A stretch of DNA of 36,366 bases from positions 1-36,366 of the forward strand of contig CAZPRK010000010.1 of assembly GCA_964589485.1 (NCBI GenBank), read 5' to 3'. This DNA is from an uncultured Methanosarcinales archaeon. Lineage in GTDB: Archaea > Nanobdellota > Nanobdellia > Woesearchaeales > CAYSVS01. The notes under the pieces are model-generated. The model was given only the letters and a program-made list of their open reading frames with translations, was not told the DNA's origin and searched no databases. The translations under genes were made by a program, and so were the position numbers. Positions 10,152 through 30,462 of this stretch are shown here, one piece after another (the stretch's first letter is position 1; each line of letters begins with the position of its first letter).

Positions 10152-10171
10152 AAAAAGAAAACCTTTAAAAG
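10152..10171 (+). promoter_or_regulatory. BRE/TATA promoter of the tRNA(CAU) gene
   Basis: Purine-rich AAAGAAAA followed by TTTAAAA at 10164-10170, 25 nt before the tRNA 5' end. Confidence 0.6.
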
Positions 10172-10195: not shown

Positions 10196-10415
10196 GGCGG
10201 TGTAACTCAGCCTGGTTAGAGTGCCACTTTCAATTTTATATTGGGGGCAAGGCTCATAAGATTTGAGCTATGATCCTTCGGGAGATGAAGAACTCAAACT
10301 TTAACTGGGTCACGTGGAACTTAGGTTCAGTGAATCTAGGCACGAAAGTCGCGATTTCAAATAGTTGACGAAGACAAGTAATGAAAGCGTCAGCTTGAAT
10401 GTATCGCCACCGCCA
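10196..10415 (+). tRNA. tRNA with CAU anticodon (probably elongator Met; Ile2 not excluded) with four introns
   Basis: Exons 10196-10227, 10252-10258, 10312-10318, 10347-10361 and 10402-10415 join into a 75-nt cloverleaf with all stems fully paired: GGCGGTG TA ACTC AGCCTGGTTA GAGT G CCACG CTCATAA CGTGG AAGTC GCGAT TTCAAAT ATCGC CACCGCC A. Each junction lies in a BHB or BHB-like motif. Confidence 0.9.
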
Positions 10416-10507
10416 TCTTAATTTTATAAATATATCACTGGACACACTGGACAGGTACGCGTGAGATATATAAATGAGTTACTATATTCTATATATTAGG
10501 TGAGGGA

Positions 10508-11350
10508 ATGGAATCAGATAAAGCACTTGTTGTATTTGAAGATAAGAAAATAAGAAGAATTTGGCATAATGGTGAATGGTGGTTTTGTATAAATGATATA
10601 GTTACCATACTTATTGATACTGTTAATGCTTCTGATTATATTAAAAAGCTTAAAATTCGAGATGATGAGTTGAACAAAGGGTGGGGACAAATTGTCACCC
10701 CCCTTTCAATTGAAACATCTGGAGGTGTACAAAAGTTGAATTGTACTTCAACAAAAGGAGCTTTTAGGGTTATTCAATCTATTCCTTCTAAGAAAGCTGA
10801 GCCTTTTAAACAATGGTTAGCTGAAGTTGGTTATGAAAGAATTCAAGAAATAGAAAACCCTGAGCTTGCACAGGATAGAGCTAAAGCATATTATGAACAA
10901 AAAGGATATCCTAAAAGTTGGATTGATAAAAGACTTCGTGGAATTGCTGTTCGTCAAGACTTAACAGATGAATGGAAAAATAGAGGCGTAGAACATAAAA
11001 ATCAATTTTCGATACTTACAAACGAAATTTCTAAGGCAACATTTGGTTTAGATATAAAAGAACATAAAAAAGTCAAAGGTCTTGATCCTAAATTTAAAAA
11101 TAGAAATTTAAGAGATCATATGACTGACTTAGAACTTATTTTTAATATGCTTGGAGAAGCATCAACAACTGAAATTGCAAAGGAGAACGATTTTCAAGGC
11201 TTCAAAGAAAATAAAATTGCTGCAAAAGAAGGTGGGAAAATATCTGGAAATGCTAGAAAAAGCTTAGAGCAAAAAACAAAGAAACAAGTTGTAAGTTCAA
11301 ATAATTATCTCTATCTAAATAATAAAAAGATCAAACAACATAATCAATAG
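10508..11350 (+). CDS. Bro-N domain protein (phage antirepressor/DinD-like family)
   Basis: IRRIWHNGEWWF, RVIQSIPSKKAEPFKQWLA, NLRDHMTDLELIF. Confidence 0.85.
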   Translation: MESDKALVVFEDKKIRRIWHNGEWWFCINDIVTILIDTVNASDYIKKLKIRDDELNKGWGQIVTPLSIETSGGVQKLNCTSTKGAFRVIQSIPSKKAEPFKQWLAEVGYERIQEIENPELAQDRAKAYYEQKGYPKSWIDKRLRGIAVRQDLTDEWKNRGVEHKNQFSILTNEISKATFGLDIKEHKKVKGLDPKFKNRNLRDHMTDLELIFNMLGEASTTEIAKENDFQGFKENKIAAKEGGKISGNARKSLEQKTKKQVVSSNNYLYLNNKKIKQHNQ

Positions 11351-25240: not shown

Positions 25241-27160
25241 ATGTTTAGGTCTTCAGATATGCAGAAAGCTAGTCTTTTTGCTGTTTCAAATGAAAGAGAA
25301 AAAGTTTTAAGTAAAATACATGAAACTGGGTTGCTTCAATTAATTGATTTAAAGGGAAGTGATATAGATTTAGAATTATCGAACCCAGGAAGTGAATTAA
25401 AAGAAATTTCTGATAAATTACTTAGAGTTTCTAGATTAGTTACAATTATGAAACTTGCACCTAGAAAGCTTTCTTTTACACAAGAGTTATTTGGTTTAGA
25501 GTTAATGGATAAAGAACATGTAAAAAGAGAAAGTAAAAAAGTAATGATAAAACATGCTGAACAATTTTTAGACAAAAATGAAGAAAAATTATTAACATTA
25601 GAAGAAGAAAATTTAACTTTAAATGAAAAAATTAATGTATTAAATGATCAAAAGAAATTAATTGTATTGTTGACAAACTTAGGAATTCCTTTAGATGAAA
25701 TTCAAACTTCCAATAAAATTTTATTCACATTAGGAAGAATTAATAATATTAATTTAGATAACTTCAAAAAAGATTGTGAAGATGACTTAAATGAATTATG
25801 TCATTTTGATGTTAGAGAAGAAAATAATAAAGAATCAGTTATAACTTTAATTACAGTTAAAGAAGATGAACATAAAGTAAATTTGTTAACTAAAAAACAT
25901 TCACTTTTAACGTTTGCTCTACCAGACTTAGAAAAACCAACAGTTGAATTTGTTGATAATGCGATTGAAACTTCAATCCAAAGAAGAATTAAGTTAATTG
26001 AAGAAATTTCAGAATTTAGAAAGAAAGTATTTGCAAATGCTATTAAATATAGAGAAGAATTAGAACTATTAAAAGAAAAATATGAAGCTATTCATAAAAC
26101 TATGAATTCTGAAAAATTCTTTTTATTAACAGGATGGGTTAGTAAAGAAAATATTAAAAAATTAGAAGATAGTTTGAAAAATTTAGCTGTAATTACTTTT
26201 GAAGACCCTAAGGAAGAAGATATTGTTCCAGTAGAAACAACTAATCCAAGGTGGCTAAAACCATTCGAAGTATTAACTGAATTATATTCTTTGCCAAAGT
26301 ATAAAGATTTAGATCCTACTTTTATTGTTGGTCCAATTTTTGTAATTTTTGCAGGGTTTATGTTAACTGACTTTGTATATGGTTTAGGGTTAGTAGTATT
26401 AGGAAGTTTTCTAATCAAAAAATTTGGCAAGTATAGCCAAGGATTAAATGATATTTCAATTAGCATTTTATTAATTGGAATTTTTTCAATGTTTTTTGGT
26501 GTTTTAACTGGAAGTTATTTAGGAGATATGATGCAATATATTAATCCTAGTTGGACTTCTAAAAATTTAGCATTCTGGGGAGATCCTTTATCAGATCCAT
26601 TATATTTTTTAATTATTAGTTTAGGAGTAGCATTAGTTCATGTAAATGTAGGTTTAATTATGGGTTTAACCGAAGACATAAGAAAAAAAGAATATAAAAC
26701 TGCTCTAGGTGATAGAATAGTTTGGTTTATTATACAAATTGGAATTGCATTATGGGCAACTGGATTTTTAGCTACTTTTGGTAAGATATTATTTGGGTTA
26801 GGTGTATTAATAAAAGTAAGCACAGCTGGTCCACTTGGATTATTAGACATTACAGGTTTTATGGGAGATGTAATAAGTTATTCTAGATTATTTGCATTAG
26901 CTTTGAGTACAGCTGGAATTGCAATGACTGTAAATTTATTAGCAGATTTACTTAGCGGAGTACCTTTTATTGGCTTTTTTTTAGCTGCTTTGATTTTCAT
27001 TGTAGGTCATTTATTTAGTTTCGCAATGAATGCATTAGGTGGTTTTGTTCATAGTATTAGGTTACAGTTTGTAGAATTTTTTGGAAAATTTTATGAAGGT
27101 GGCGGAGATAGATTTTTACCATTTAAAGAAGAAAGAACTTATACTGAGGTTAAAAAATGA
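25241..27160 (+). CDS. atpI: A/V-type ATP synthase subunit I (a)
   Basis: LPKYKDLDPT, GFMLTD, DVISYSRLFAL (essential Arg), HSIRLQFVEFF. Confidence 0.96.
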   Translation: MFRSSDMQKASLFAVSNEREKVLSKIHETGLLQLIDLKGSDIDLELSNPGSELKEISDKLLRVSRLVTIMKLAPRKLSFTQELFGLELMDKEHVKRESKKVMIKHAEQFLDKNEEKLLTLEEENLTLNEKINVLNDQKKLIVLLTNLGIPLDEIQTSNKILFTLGRINNINLDNFKKDCEDDLNELCHFDVREENNKESVITLITVKEDEHKVNLLTKKHSLLTFALPDLEKPTVEFVDNAIETSIQRRIKLIEEISEFRKKVFANAIKYREELELLKEKYEAIHKTMNSEKFFLLTGWVSKENIKKLEDSLKNLAVITFEDPKEEDIVPVETTNPRWLKPFEVLTELYSLPKYKDLDPTFIVGPIFVIFAGFMLTDFVYGLGLVVLGSFLIKKFGKYSQGLNDISISILLIGIFSMFFGVLTGSYLGDMMQYINPSWTSKNLAFWGDPLSDPLYFLIISLGVALVHVNVGLIMGLTEDIRKKEYKTALGDRIVWFIIQIGIALWATGFLATFGKILFGLGVLIKVSTAGPLGLLDITGFMGDVISYSRLFALALSTAGIAMTVNLLADLLSGVPFIGFFLAALIFIVGHLFSFAMNALGGFVHSIRLQFVEFFGKFYEGGGDRFLPFKEERTYTEVKK

Positions 27161-30100
27161 GCATTCCATATTATAGTTATTTACAAACCCAGGGAATTTT
27201 ACAGGAAGCTGTAAATAATATGACAAAGACAGTTGTTGAAACATCTGTTGATTTAAGTAATGTTACAATTAATAATTCAATTACAACTTCTGGAATGTTT
27301 GGTGGTATGTTTAATATTGGGATTGATCCTATGTATTTAGCTATAATAGGAGCAGGTATCGCAGTAGGTGTTTCTGGAATTGCATCAGCTATTGGAGCCG
27401 GAATTGCAGGAAGTACTGGAGCGAAAGCTGTAGCTGAAGATCCTAAACAATTTTCAACTGCATTATTATTTCAAGCTTTACCTCAAACTCAAGGTATTTA
27501 TGGTTTTTTAATTGCAATTTTAATATTATTGGGAGCAGGTGTAGTTGGAACTGTAAAACAAATCACATTAGCTCAAGGTTTAGGTGCTTTAGGTGCTGGT
27601 TTAGCAGTTGGAATTGCAGCAGTTTCAGCAATTGGTCAAGGTATTGCAGCAAGTGCAGGAATTGGAGCAGTAAAAGAAGATAAAAAAATGTTTGGTAAAA
27701 GTATTTTATTCTCAGTTTTGCCAGAAACTCAGGCATTATATGGTTTTATTATTTCTATTTTAATATTAATAGGTGTAGGGTTATTCGGAGCTGTAACAAA
27801 AAATATTCCTGAAGTATTAGGATGGGCTTCAGTTGGTGCAGGTTTAGCAGCAGGTATTGCTGGAATTTCAGCTTTAGGTCAAGGAATTGCGGCAGCCGGT
27901 GGAATTGGAGCTGTATTAGAGAGAAGTAAAGTTTTTGGTAAGAGTATTTTATTCTCAGTTTTGCCAGAAACTCAAGCATTATATGGATTTATAATTGCAG
28001 TATTGATATTAATAGGGTTTGGAATTTTAGGTGTTCCACAATCTGAATTTAATTTAGCTTTAGGAATGTTTGCAATAGCTGCAGGGTTAAGTGTAGGTAT
28101 TTCAGGAATTTCTGCAGTAGGTCAAGGTATGGCAGCTTCAGCCGGTATTGGAAGTATTGCAGAAGATGATAAAATGTTTGGTAAAAGTATTTTATTTTCA
28201 GTCTTGCCAGAAACTCAAGCATTATATGGATTTTTAATTGGAGTTTTAATTTTAGTTGGTGGTGGGTTAATTGGTGGAATAAAAGTTGGCATTACAACTC
28301 CTATAGGTGTTATTGCAATAGGCGCAGCTTTAAGTGCAGGTTTTGCAGCAGTTTCAGCTATAGGTCAAGGTATGTCTGCTTCTTCAGGAATAAAGTCAGT
28401 TACAGAAAAACCAAGTATGTTTGGTAAAAGTATTATATTTAGTATCATTCCTGAAACTCAAGCTTTAATGGGATTTTTAATTGCTATATTATTATTAATA
28501 GGTTCAGGTATTATTGGTTCAGCTAAAGCGGGACTTAGCATGGGCAGTGGTTTAATTGCAATAGGTGCAGGAGTTGCTGTTGGTTTAGCTGCTGTGTCTG
28601 CAGTAGGTCAAGGATATGTTGTAAGTTCAAGTATTACTAACGTTACAAGAAATGCGAAAATGTTTGGTAAAAGTTTATTATTCAGTGTACTTCCTCAAAC
28701 TCAAGCATTATATGGATTTTTAATTGCAATTTTATTATTAGTTGGAGGTGGTCTTGTAGGCGGAGTTAAGTCAGGACTTTCTACTTCAATAGGTTTAGTT
28801 GCAATTGGAGCTGGATTAGCAGTTGGTCTTTCTGCAATGTCAGCAATTGGTCAAGGACTAGTTGCAAGTAGTGCAGTAAATGCAGTTTCAAGAAATAATA
28901 AAATGTTTGGTAAAAGTATTTTATTTTCAGTCTTGCCAGAAACTCAAGCACTATATGGATTTTTAGTAGCTATAATTCTGTTAGTATCAGGTGGATTAAT
29001 TGGTGCTTCATCAACTAGTATTATTACTCCAATGGGAATTGTTGCAATTGGCGCTGCAATTAGTGTTGGGTTTGGAGCAATTTCAGCTATAGGTCAAGGA
29101 ACTTCTGCAGCTAGCGGAGTTACTGCAACTTCTGAAAAACAAAGTATGTTTGGTAAAAGTATTATATTTAGTATTATTCCTGAAACTCAAGCTTTAATGG
29201 GTTTTTTAATTGCAATTTTAATGTTGATTGGTGCAGGGTTAATGGGAAAAATTGCATATTCTATTTCGATAGCTCATGGGGTTGTAGCAGTGGGTGCAGG
29301 TTTTGCTGTCGGTATGGCTGCTATTTCAGCTATAGGTCAAGGGTTTGCAGTTTCAACATCTATTAATGCAGTAACCCAAGATGCAAAAATGTTTGCAAAA
29401 AGTTTATTGTTTTCAGTTATTCCACAAACTCAAGCTTTAATGGGTTTTTTAATCGCAATATTAATATTAATTGGCAGTGGATTAGTAGGAAGTATTAACA
29501 TGGCTATAACTACTGCAAATGGTCTTGTAGCAATAGGTGCAGGATTTGCTGTAGGATTAGGAGCATTATCTGCAGTAGGTCAAGGTTTTGTTATTTCATC
29601 TGCTATAACTACAGTAACACAAGATAACAAAATGTTTGGTAAAGGTTTATTGTTTAGTGTTCTTCCACAAACTCAAGCATTGTATGGATTTTTAGTTGCA
29701 ATTTTACTTCTTGTAGGAGGAGGATTAATAGGCGGAAGTGCTTTAGATTTACATATTCCTGTTGGATTACTTGCAATGGGTGCAGGGTTAGCTGTTGGTT
29801 TAGCAGCAGCTTCAGCTATTGGTCAAGGATTAGTTGCAGGAAGTGGTATAACTGCAGTTAAGGAAGATAATAAAATGTTTGGTAAAGCTATATTGTTTTC
29901 AGTCTTGCCAGAAACTCAAGCATTGTATGGATTTTTAATCGCAATTTTATTATTAGTAGGCGGTGGATTAATAGGTACATTAAATTTAGCATTAACTGTT
30001 CCTTTAGGTTTAGTTGCAATTGGAGCAGGGTTAAGTGTCGGAGTTGCTGCAGTTTCAGCTATAGGTCAAGGTGTAGCTGCAAGTAGCGGTGTTGCTTCAG

Positions 30101-30462
30101 TTCAAGAAAATAGTAAAATGTTTGGTAAAAGTATTTTATTTTCAGTATTACCAGAAACTCAAGCGTTATATGGAACAATAATATCTATTCTTTTAATGAC
30201 TGGTGTTGGTATAATGGGTGTTATTAAATCTGGAGTAACTATGTTACAAGGATTTGGTGCAATAGGCGCAGGATTAGCTATAGGTTTTGCTGCAATATCA
30301 GCATTAGGTCAAGGAATAATTTCAGCAAGTAGTATAGGTGCAAGTTTAAAAGATGCAAAAAGTATGGGTAAAGGATTAGTATTAAGTGTAATCCCTGAAA
30401 CATATGCTATCTTTGGATTATTAATTTCAATTTTAATGTTGTTAGGACTTAAAATAATTTAA
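27157..30462 (+). CDS. atpK: A/V-type ATP synthase proteolipid subunit K (c) with 13 fused hairpins
   Basis: 13 copies of G-A-G-L...SAxGQG...F.K..LF..LP(E/Q)TQA.YGF, between atpI and atpE. Confidence 0.96.
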   Translation: MSIPYYSYLQTQGILQEAVNNMTKTVVETSVDLSNVTINNSITTSGMFGGMFNIGIDPMYLAIIGAGIAVGVSGIASAIGAGIAGSTGAKAVAEDPKQFSTALLFQALPQTQGIYGFLIAILILLGAGVVGTVKQITLAQGLGALGAGLAVGIAAVSAIGQGIAASAGIGAVKEDKKMFGKSILFSVLPETQALYGFIISILILIGVGLFGAVTKNIPEVLGWASVGAGLAAGIAGISALGQGIAAAGGIGAVLERSKVFGKSILFSVLPETQALYGFIIAVLILIGFGILGVPQSEFNLALGMFAIAAGLSVGISGISAVGQGMAASAGIGSIAEDDKMFGKSILFSVLPETQALYGFLIGVLILVGGGLIGGIKVGITTPIGVIAIGAALSAGFAAVSAIGQGMSASSGIKSVTEKPSMFGKSIIFSIIPETQALMGFLIAILLLIGSGIIGSAKAGLSMGSGLIAIGAGVAVGLAAVSAVGQGYVVSSSITNVTRNAKMFGKSLLFSVLPQTQALYGFLIAILLLVGGGLVGGVKSGLSTSIGLVAIGAGLAVGLSAMSAIGQGLVASSAVNAVSRNNKMFGKSILFSVLPETQALYGFLVAIILLVSGGLIGASSTSIITPMGIVAIGAAISVGFGAISAIGQGTSAASGVTATSEKQSMFGKSIIFSIIPETQALMGFLIAILMLIGAGLMGKIAYSISIAHGVVAVGAGFAVGMAAISAIGQGFAVSTSINAVTQDAKMFAKSLLFSVIPQTQALMGFLIAILILIGSGLVGSINMAITTANGLVAIGAGFAVGLGALSAVGQGFVISSAITTVTQDNKMFGKGLLFSVLPQTQALYGFLVAILLLVGGGLIGGSALDLHIPVGLLAMGAGLAVGLAAASAIGQGLVAGSGITAVKEDNKMFGKAILFSVLPETQALYGFLIAILLLVGGGLIGTLNLALTVPLGLVAIGAGLSVGVAAVSAIGQGVAASSGVASVQENSKMFGKSILFSVLPETQALYGTIISILLMTGVGIMGVIKSGVTMLQGFGAIGAGLAIGFAAISALGQGIISASSIGASLKDAKSMGKGLVLSVIPETYAIFGLLISILMLLGLKII
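27331..30453 (+). repeat. 13 diverged tandem coding repeats, period 243 nt (81 aa)
   Basis: P(E/Q)T codons start at 27481, 27721, 27964, 28207, 28450, 28693, 28936, 29179, 29422, 29665, 29908, 30151, 30394 (first spacing 240, all others 243). Confidence 0.95.

Follow-up and report, generated by a model that had tools for sequence, protein, structure and literature searches.

A tRNA-Met gene with four introns and a candidate half box C/D guide in a DPANN archaeon

Archaeal tRNA genes with several bulge-helix-bulge (BHB) introns have been described in Thermoproteales and ARMAN-2, where canonical introns are combined with non-canonical ones and one intron must leave before the motif of its neighbour can form. 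In the accessible parts of Fujishima 2011 (PMC3239211), Fujishima & Kanai 2014 (PMC4033280) and the tRNAscan-SE 2.0 preprint (10.1101/614032), the last of which presents a search that iterates over introns, three is the maximum number of introns per gene, and the Thermoproteales and ARMAN-2 hosts carry (alpha-beta)2 or epsilon2 EndA bearing specificity loops. For Asgard archaea, a computational census gives 'up to five' intervening sequences per tRNA gene (bioRxiv 10.64898/2026.10.13.758758), and over half of the disrupted tRNA genes are described as having several introns (PMC11291895). The tRNA gene analysed here, with four BHB-type introns, resembles the Thermoproteales and ARMAN-2 genes in combining canonical with non-canonical intron positions and in the predicted dependence of one motif on the prior loss of a neighbour, but it exceeds their maximum, and only an EndA apparently without such loops was found in its host. 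Like the Asgard genes, it has at least four inserts, lies in a group where introns were gained repeatedly at common positions, and tends to be missed by standard annotation. The Asgard hosts, however, mostly possess two EndA paralogues, and the main text of the preprint contains no occurrence of 'Woese' or 'DPANN'. A search of the open full-text literature by titles and abstract openings, a scope outside which most subscription papers lie, returned neither a four-intron DPANN tRNA nor C34 guides located in the introns of Met or Leu genes of Woesearchaeota.

Structure of the gene and its counterparts among relatives

The window, that is, the whole 36,366-nt stretch of DNA that was analysed (contig CAZPRK010000010.1), belongs to a host genome labelled G000. 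The gene occupies positions 10196-10415 of the window, and all of its features lie on the + strand. A BRE/TATA-like putative promoter at 10157-10170 contains a TTTAAA box (10164-10169) 26 nt upstream of the gene; the same box lies upstream of the gene in the same-genus genome G001, and a TTTAAA box A is known from N. equitans tRNA promoters. Excision of the four inserts leaves exons of 32, 7, 7, 15 and 14 nt, and the spliced 75-nt form, a fully paired tRNA(CAU) cloverleaf in the first-pass annotation, was identified by ARAGORN as tRNA-Met(cat) with all four stems paired. The introns, located at tRNA positions 30/31, 37/38, 44/45 and 59/60, are 24, 53, 28 and 40 nt long and account for 145 of the 220 nt (66%) of the gene. 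Exon 1 (10196-10227, positions 1-30), delimited by ARAGORN and by a blind parse, is identical in G002, another genome of the genus. Micro-exon 2 (10252-10258, positions 31-37) carries the anticodon CAU at 10255-10257 and is a partner in three mutually exclusive pairings. Micro-exon 3 (10312-10318, positions 38-44) is contiguous in G001 and G002 with the sequence of exon 4 (10347-10361, positions 45-59; ARAGORN), and exon 5 (10402-10415, positions 60-73) ends in discriminator A73, the CCA tail not being encoded.

At all four introns the central helix is paired at 4/4 positions (TGCC/GGCA, CTCA/TGGG, CGTG/CACG and TTCA/TGAA) and flanked by 3-nt bulges, with the cut falling after the second bulge base. 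These helices were re-derived together with the coordinates, lengths, tRNA positions and two 7-nt micro-exons, and each came out as first annotated. Intron 1 (10228-10251; h3/h'6) and intron 4 (10362-10401; h5/h'8) are strict hBHBh' motifs, in agreement with the earlier assignment. For introns 2 and 3, to which one weak flanking helix each had been ascribed, the description was refined: intron 3 (10319-10346) is a relaxed HBh' motif with no exon helix and a 9-bp intron helix (h0/h'9), and the canonical intron 2 (10259-10311), h1/h'1 as long as the transcript is unprocessed, acquires its 5-bp exon helix, as hBH, only after intron 1 has been removed. A flanking helix of at least 2 bp is thus present in the primary transcript for introns 1, 3 and 4, and for intron 2 only after the removal of intron 1. 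A nested fifth intron within intron 2 was considered and rejected by eye, as a central helix was lacking.

The parse was recovered independently by a beam search, a walk along a cloverleaf model that may skip BHB-bounded inserts and was supplied with no coordinates. The identical four-intron structure was returned with a score of 57.7, within the range of the other tRNAs of the genome, and the best spurious parse genome-wide reached 32.3; within the window, only this gene and a tRNA-Ser were reported. When the interior was dinucleotide-shuffled with exons 1 and 5 kept, some parse was obtained in 89 of 300 shuffles, the best scoring 31.8 against 57.7. In 5000 shuffles of each intron, a fully paired central helix with an intron helix at or above the observed one appeared at frequencies of 0.0008, 0.0064, 0 and 0 for introns 1 to 4. 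The expectation that standard scanners would overlook the unspliced gene was borne out for ARAGORN, run with and without -i and on both window and genome, and for Rfam RF00005, which missed the locus. The strongest evidence for the gene structure is the comparison with G002, whose exons are identical at 75/75 nt and in which junctions 1|2 and 3|4 are contiguous DNA (locus L006). There is accordingly little doubt that the locus is a real four-intron elongator tRNA-Met gene, and very probably an essential one. Three metatranscriptome contig sets from the same study contained no contig over the tRNA locus, which is uninformative either way.

In both G001 and G002 the Met gene has only the 37/38 and 59/60 introns; intron 1 is absent from them, and position 30/31 is used in other families of the order. 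An insert between the D-arm and the anticodon was found in 26 of the 401 genomes of the order, G000 included, a count that is not a census because genes without a 30/31 insert are invisible to this pattern. Among the 25 other loci, seven were parsed with three introns and none with four; two are Lys tRNAs, and several matched through a canonical intron. Two of these loci, one with three introns (G374) and one with two (G206), come from genomes flagged unpublished, and both also enter the set B motif counts and the 51-locus D-arm set used below. Of the individual positions, 30/31 recurs widely, 44/45 recurs in L285, L096 and L178, and 59/60 in G001, G002, L293 and L298, while the 37/38 intron is conserved across the order. 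Since every intron position recurs, the G000 gene brings together every site that is otherwise occupied two or three at a time in the order. Introns 1 and 3 were probably gained later, at positions also interrupted in other lineages of the order, the alternative being loss in the two congeners. Copying of introns between tRNAs of the genome was examined over 351 pairs of 27 introns and rejected as a source, only the guide-bearing Met, Trp and Leu introns standing out (z 6.1 and 3.8); introns 1, 3 and 4 had no clear sibling among the 27 (best z 3.0).

Beyond the order, scans of collections (at least 119 and at least 120 stretches) returned mostly Nitrosopumilaceae single-intron genes and likewise do not represent a census. 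There were 241 candidate starts, 32 of which had no automatic parse and were examined by hand, and low-score parses with four to six introns (L113, L132, L142 and L146) were left out of the counts. Among the matches listed, most of the named records that share this Met-intron architecture are titled Ca. Woesearchaeota or Nanoarchaeia. A contig assigned to Ca. Odinarchaeota (L049, JAEOUO010000001.1, - strand, 390-565) contains a tRNA-Met(CAU) that parses with four introns at 30/31, 37/38, 45/46 and 59/60, scored at 58.1 by a relaxed parser, with two introns showing by eye only 3/4 central pairs. The suggestion in the first-pass annotation that four introns might be a record is therefore not upheld, in view of both the Odinarchaeota tRNA-Met parse and the Asgard census. 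By eye, L142 resembles L049. L118, L157, L171, L256 and similar loci have tRNA-Met introns at 8/9, 30/31 and 45/46, and upstream of the gene the 5' strand of the acceptor stem is duplicated over a short stretch.

Several features were observed around the gene. A Bro-N domain gene (10508-11350, +) lies directly 3' of the tRNA, with a paralogue-like open reading frame on contig C3; the genome was found to contain no second copy of the 3' end of the tRNA. Between the two genes, a repeated element at 10436-10477 consists of a tandem 7-nt repeat directly upstream of a TATA-like box. At least seven further copies occur in G000 and many in G001, G002 and G047; several copies precede, by eye, Bro-N-like or helicase-like open reading frames, and the element may be an operator or a MITE. 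Further downstream (27157-30462, +), a 1101-aa c/K subunit of an A-type ATP synthase contains 13 ATP-synt_C stretches, so that a whole rotor ring is possibly fused in one chain; a 13-fold c/K subunit fusion exists in Methanopyrus kandleri.

A kink-turn and antisense elements in the 37/38 intron

Intronic RNAs related to box C/D guides are described in several archaea. The elongator tRNA-Met intron of N. equitans is, like the one studied here, a long 37/38-type intron with box C/D elements, and it was found there as a stable RNA (Randau 2012, PMC3491384); its box D is accompanied by a box C that is mutated, and the accessible text names no target. The pre-tRNA-Trp intron of Haloferax and Pyrococcus encodes a Cm34 guide (sR50) for its own host tRNA (PMC7994747, PMC2584109), but this guide bears both C/D and C'/D' motifs and has two targets. 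In Pyrococcus, position 34 is described as a C/D guide target in Leu(CAA), Leu(UAA), Met and Trp, the Met Cm34 guide (sR49) being separate and, according to the available text of PMC2584109, always outside the intron. The candidate in G000 differs in lying inside the Met intron; unlike the N. equitans case, it has a C'/D'-type half, a register on C34 and covariation, and it is also seen in Trp and Leu(CAA).

Intron 2 has the layout of a C'/D' kink-turn, namely a short antisense, an NUGA word, a hairpin and a RUGAU-type box. The antisense element (10262-10268) pairs with positions 31-37 at 6/7 positions in Watson-Crick fashion, and the fifth base upstream of the D'-like box (register -5) faces C34. 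The kink-turn (10270-10291), a putative L7Ae binding site, comprises a D'-like AUGA (10270-10273), a hairpin (10274-10283) and a C'-like box (10285-10291) matching RUGAUGA at 6/7 positions; it was identified with what we take to be the C'/D' box consensus. A second antisense element (10299-10310) can form 12 bp, four of them G-U, with the D-arm at 10210-10221 and shares nucleotides with the 3' strand of the central helix of intron 2.

The element was followed in a set of relatives that had not been chosen for the motif (29 loci, of which 22 are Met-type and three of these intronless). The motif was present in 18 of the 19 intron-bearing Met loci, and -5 was the best register in all 18, although these relatives are not independent. 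Across the 18, positions 32-35 pair in every locus, position 31 in 16 (11 as G:C and five as A:T) and position 36 in two; 5-7 of the seven positions pair, usually 5-6. Two further, partly overlapping Met sets gave the motif in 20/25 and 21/24 loci, the latter hand-picked, with register -5 in 20/20 and 21/21. In Trp introns the motif was found in 24 of 25 loci, always at register -5 (24/24), and the antisense was altered to the CCA anticodon at positions 35 and 36; this set is biased, since resemblance to the Trp intron of G000 was the basis on which it was assembled. Within G000 itself, exactly three of 28 introns carry the motif, one in each of the Met(CAU), Trp(CCA) and Leu(CAA) genes, and all three have 6/7 pairs at register -5. 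The Leu(CAA) gene (G000:C1:223771-223931, +) and the Trp(CCA) gene (G000:C2:77486-77634, +) have two introns each; in both, the 37/38 intron bears this kink-turn together with an antisense directed at the anticodon loop of its host tRNA. The motif is absent from Leu(UAA) in G000, though that tRNA is a guide target in Pyrococcus. As a separate observation, a 50-nt tRNA-Tyr intron (G000:C4:23247-23125, -) was rejected by the kink-turn filter although a perfect box C-like word occurs in it.

The intron falls short of a canonical C/D sRNA. By inspection no terminal box C or box D was found, the intron beginning with the antisense and having no box C upstream; CUGA-like words near the 3' end of 37/38 introns overlap the BHB helix and vary, and Rfam gave no match over the locus. 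The duplex is 5-6 bp, where a typical archaeal guide duplex is about 10-12 nt, and intron-internal pairing is also open to the antisense. Complementarity of the 3' part of the intron to the D-arm extends beyond G000 (33 of 51 loci with z<-1.64), but its covariation is thin, with T:A at positions 16 and 17 in three and one of 43 loci. The D-arm antisense was considered as a second methylation guide and rejected for now, no consistent box being found behind it.

The half-complete architecture and short duplex are also what would be expected if the kink-turn and antisense formed an L7Ae-bound folding or timing element that keeps the precursor inactive for as long as the other introns remain, and did not guide methylation. 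The widespread D-arm antisense with no box behind it fits this alternative, as does the predicted minimum-energy fold of the intermediate that retains only intron 2: this fold is the blocked one, uses both antisense elements and lies 5.9 kcal/mol below the splice-ready fold. A folding or timing role, however, would not explain the register fixed at -5 throughout the overlapping Met sets and the Trp loci, nor the confinement of the motif in G000 to three C34 tRNAs and its absence from the other multi-intron genes. We consider it rather unlikely that the element serves folding or timing alone. More likely, the 37/38 intron is the old, conserved one and its half box C/D guide, acting in cis or in trans, is responsible for 2'-O-methylation of C34.

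Splicing order and the splicing endonuclease

The splice motifs of neighbouring introns compete for the same nucleotides. The exon helix of intron 1 borrows, according to folding, positions 32-34 and 22-24, and the central helix of intron 2 uses positions 32-35; on the other side, the central helix of intron 3 uses positions 39-42 and the exon helix of intron 2 positions 39-43. In a folding model that ignores proteins and tertiary contacts, forming the motif in the full precursor cost 9.7, 21.6, 0.1 and 0.7 kcal/mol for introns 1 to 4. The cost for intron 2 fell to 11.5 kcal/mol without intron 1 and to 9.2 kcal/mol without introns 1 and 3, and that of intron 1 was 2.4 kcal/mol when it was treated as HBh'. 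The splice-competent intron-2 fold was placed 5.9-9.2 kcal/mol above the ensemble by the secondary-structure model. Because the motifs are mutually exclusive, the 37/38 cut should come last: the exon helix of intron 2 is the anticodon stem, which is unable to form before intron 1 leaves. Modelling thus makes an ordered pathway reasonably probable, in which introns 3 and 4 would be removed first, then intron 1, then intron 2. The 37/38 intron is also processed last in a three-intron tRNA of C. merolae (PMC3728597), whereas in a two-intron M. kandleri substrate in vitro the canonical intron is described as leaving first, the opposite order (Kaneta 2018, PMC5829648).

One EndA gene, encoding a 175-aa alpha subunit, was found in G000. 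A profile of 13 EndAs from the order, run against all six frames, gave no second hit below E=0.4, and a single EndA sequence detected the N. equitans beta subunit at 1e-10. Across 61 genomes, exactly one EndA match was obtained in 56, two in three and none in two. The best structure match of the G000 enzyme is that of N. equitans. It aligns gap-free with the alpha4 enzyme of M. jannaschii (1A79) at the sites of a 6-residue insert in N. equitans 3IEY and a 5-residue insert in ARMAN-2 4FZ2, and A. pernix EndA likewise has an insert where the G000 and M. jannaschii enzymes align gap-free. With loop boundaries judged from pairwise alignments, the G000 enzyme appears, provisionally, to be without the known specificity loops (L1, L2 and L3). 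Relaxed-motif cleavage has been tied to such loops, and L3-bearing alpha4 EndAs are reported in DPANN (Kaneta 2018, PMC5829648); alpha4 EndAs without a specific loop are described as cutting relaxed motifs poorly (PMC3239211, PMC5829648). The L3-bearing enzymes provide the nearest parallel, being single-subunit EndAs in DPANN with many disrupted tRNAs, but the G000 enzyme lacks an insert relative to M. jannaschii.

This leaves a tension, as intron 3 is of the HBh' type yet the search yielded only an alpha subunit that is apparently loop-less. The limits described in vitro for EndAs of this kind (in the accessible text of PMC5829648) could mean that the alpha subunit alone is unable to cut intron 3 and that an unrecognised partner subunit or an RNA chaperone gives relaxed specificity, and a very divergent beta subunit could evade a profile. 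Nevertheless, the absence of a second hit below E=0.4, the ready detection of the N. equitans beta subunit and the single match in most of the genomes make such a partner unlikely.

Isotype, maturation and meaning of the gene

The host genome comprises 1.16 Mb in 23 contigs, with about 28% G+C and a marker completeness of 99.9%. Judged by the named records that share its Met-intron architecture and by the N. equitans match of its EndA, the host is most likely a low-GC DPANN archaeon of the Woesearchaeota type. Two CAU genes were found in the genome, the four-intron gene and one at C5:16405-16305. The latter combines A1-U72 with three G-C pairs in its anticodon stem, which we take to be the marks of an initiator, whereas the four-intron gene has G1-C72. 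An Ile(UAU) gene is present at C14:26488-26380, TiaS (PF08489) was found in 0/1 for G000 (control 4/14), and the tRNA inventory held no other elongator Met candidate. With initiator marks on the other CAU gene, an Ile(UAU) gene in the genome and no TiaS found, the four-intron gene is assigned, on sequence grounds, as the only elongator Met gene found in G000. A search for another CAU copy, proposed with the first-pass annotation, accordingly gave no intact second elongator gene. The isotype and the kink-turn and antisense element of intron 2 are additions to that annotation. No other tRNA of the genome was parsed with more than two introns (29 genes inventoried, at least one mis-parsed). Among the inventoried genes, an intron-containing tRNA (G000:C7:38675-38584, -) was parsed with anticodon AGU (Thr, A34), and Thr(UGU) was not found; A34 in this anticodon is unusual for archaea.

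Given 23 contigs and an inventory without clear genes for several anticodons, the locus might be an overloaded, non-functional one whose working copy lies in unassembled DNA. The exons, however, are identical at every position to those of the two-intron G002 orthologue, none of the four central helices is disrupted and the gene is preceded by a promoter-like box; this explanation is very improbable. Although a CAU anticodon by itself does not discriminate, it is scarcely credible that the gene encodes an agmatidine-modified tRNA-Ile2 and not elongator Met, as TiaS was not found, Ile(UAU) is present and no other elongator candidate was found in the inventory, a combination (no TiaS, Ile(UAU) present) also described for Ile2-less ARMAN archaea (PMC3239211).

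EndA, RtcB, fibrillarin, Nop5 and L7Ae are all encoded in G000. Taken as a whole, the locus is very likely best explained as a single elongator tRNA-Met gene with EndA/RtcB processing, ordered splicing and a guide in its 37/38 intron. A precursor of about 220 nt would be transcribed, EndA would cut the four BHB-type introns and RtcB would join the five exons. Introns 3 and 4 would present cleavable motifs already in the primary transcript; intron 1 would follow, probably as HBh', and the 37/38 intron would leave last. Either in cis or in trans, the C'/D' kink-turn and short antisense of intron 2 would direct 2'-O-methylation of C34 through L7Ae-Nop5-fibrillarin. One antisense would lie over the anticodon loop and the second over the D-arm in the preferred fold, and with both covered the last cut would be held back. 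A joint reading is put forward tentatively, in which minimal half guides lie in the canonical introns of three C34 tRNAs and the one in this gene also acts as a conformational gate: its intron would cover its own anticodon loop and D-arm, have C34 methylated and be the last of the four to leave, with a loop-less single-subunit EndA responsible for every cut.

The four-intron parse accounts for an essential tRNA that is apparently missing from G000. Four introns are extreme, though no longer unique; the number exceeds the three of the peer-reviewed texts and extends four-intron genes to DPANN. The gene is, moreover, a compact substrate for asking whether a loop-less single-subunit EndA can cut relaxed, non-canonical BHB motifs. 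If the guide reading is true, Woesearchaeota-type archaea would use a half guide made of one kink-turn and a 5-6-nt antisense with no terminal C/D boxes, and a half C/D guide that methylates its host tRNA through a 5-6-bp duplex would alter the definition of a minimal archaeal guide. Such a self-methylating guide, if true, would also provide a reason for the introns to persist.
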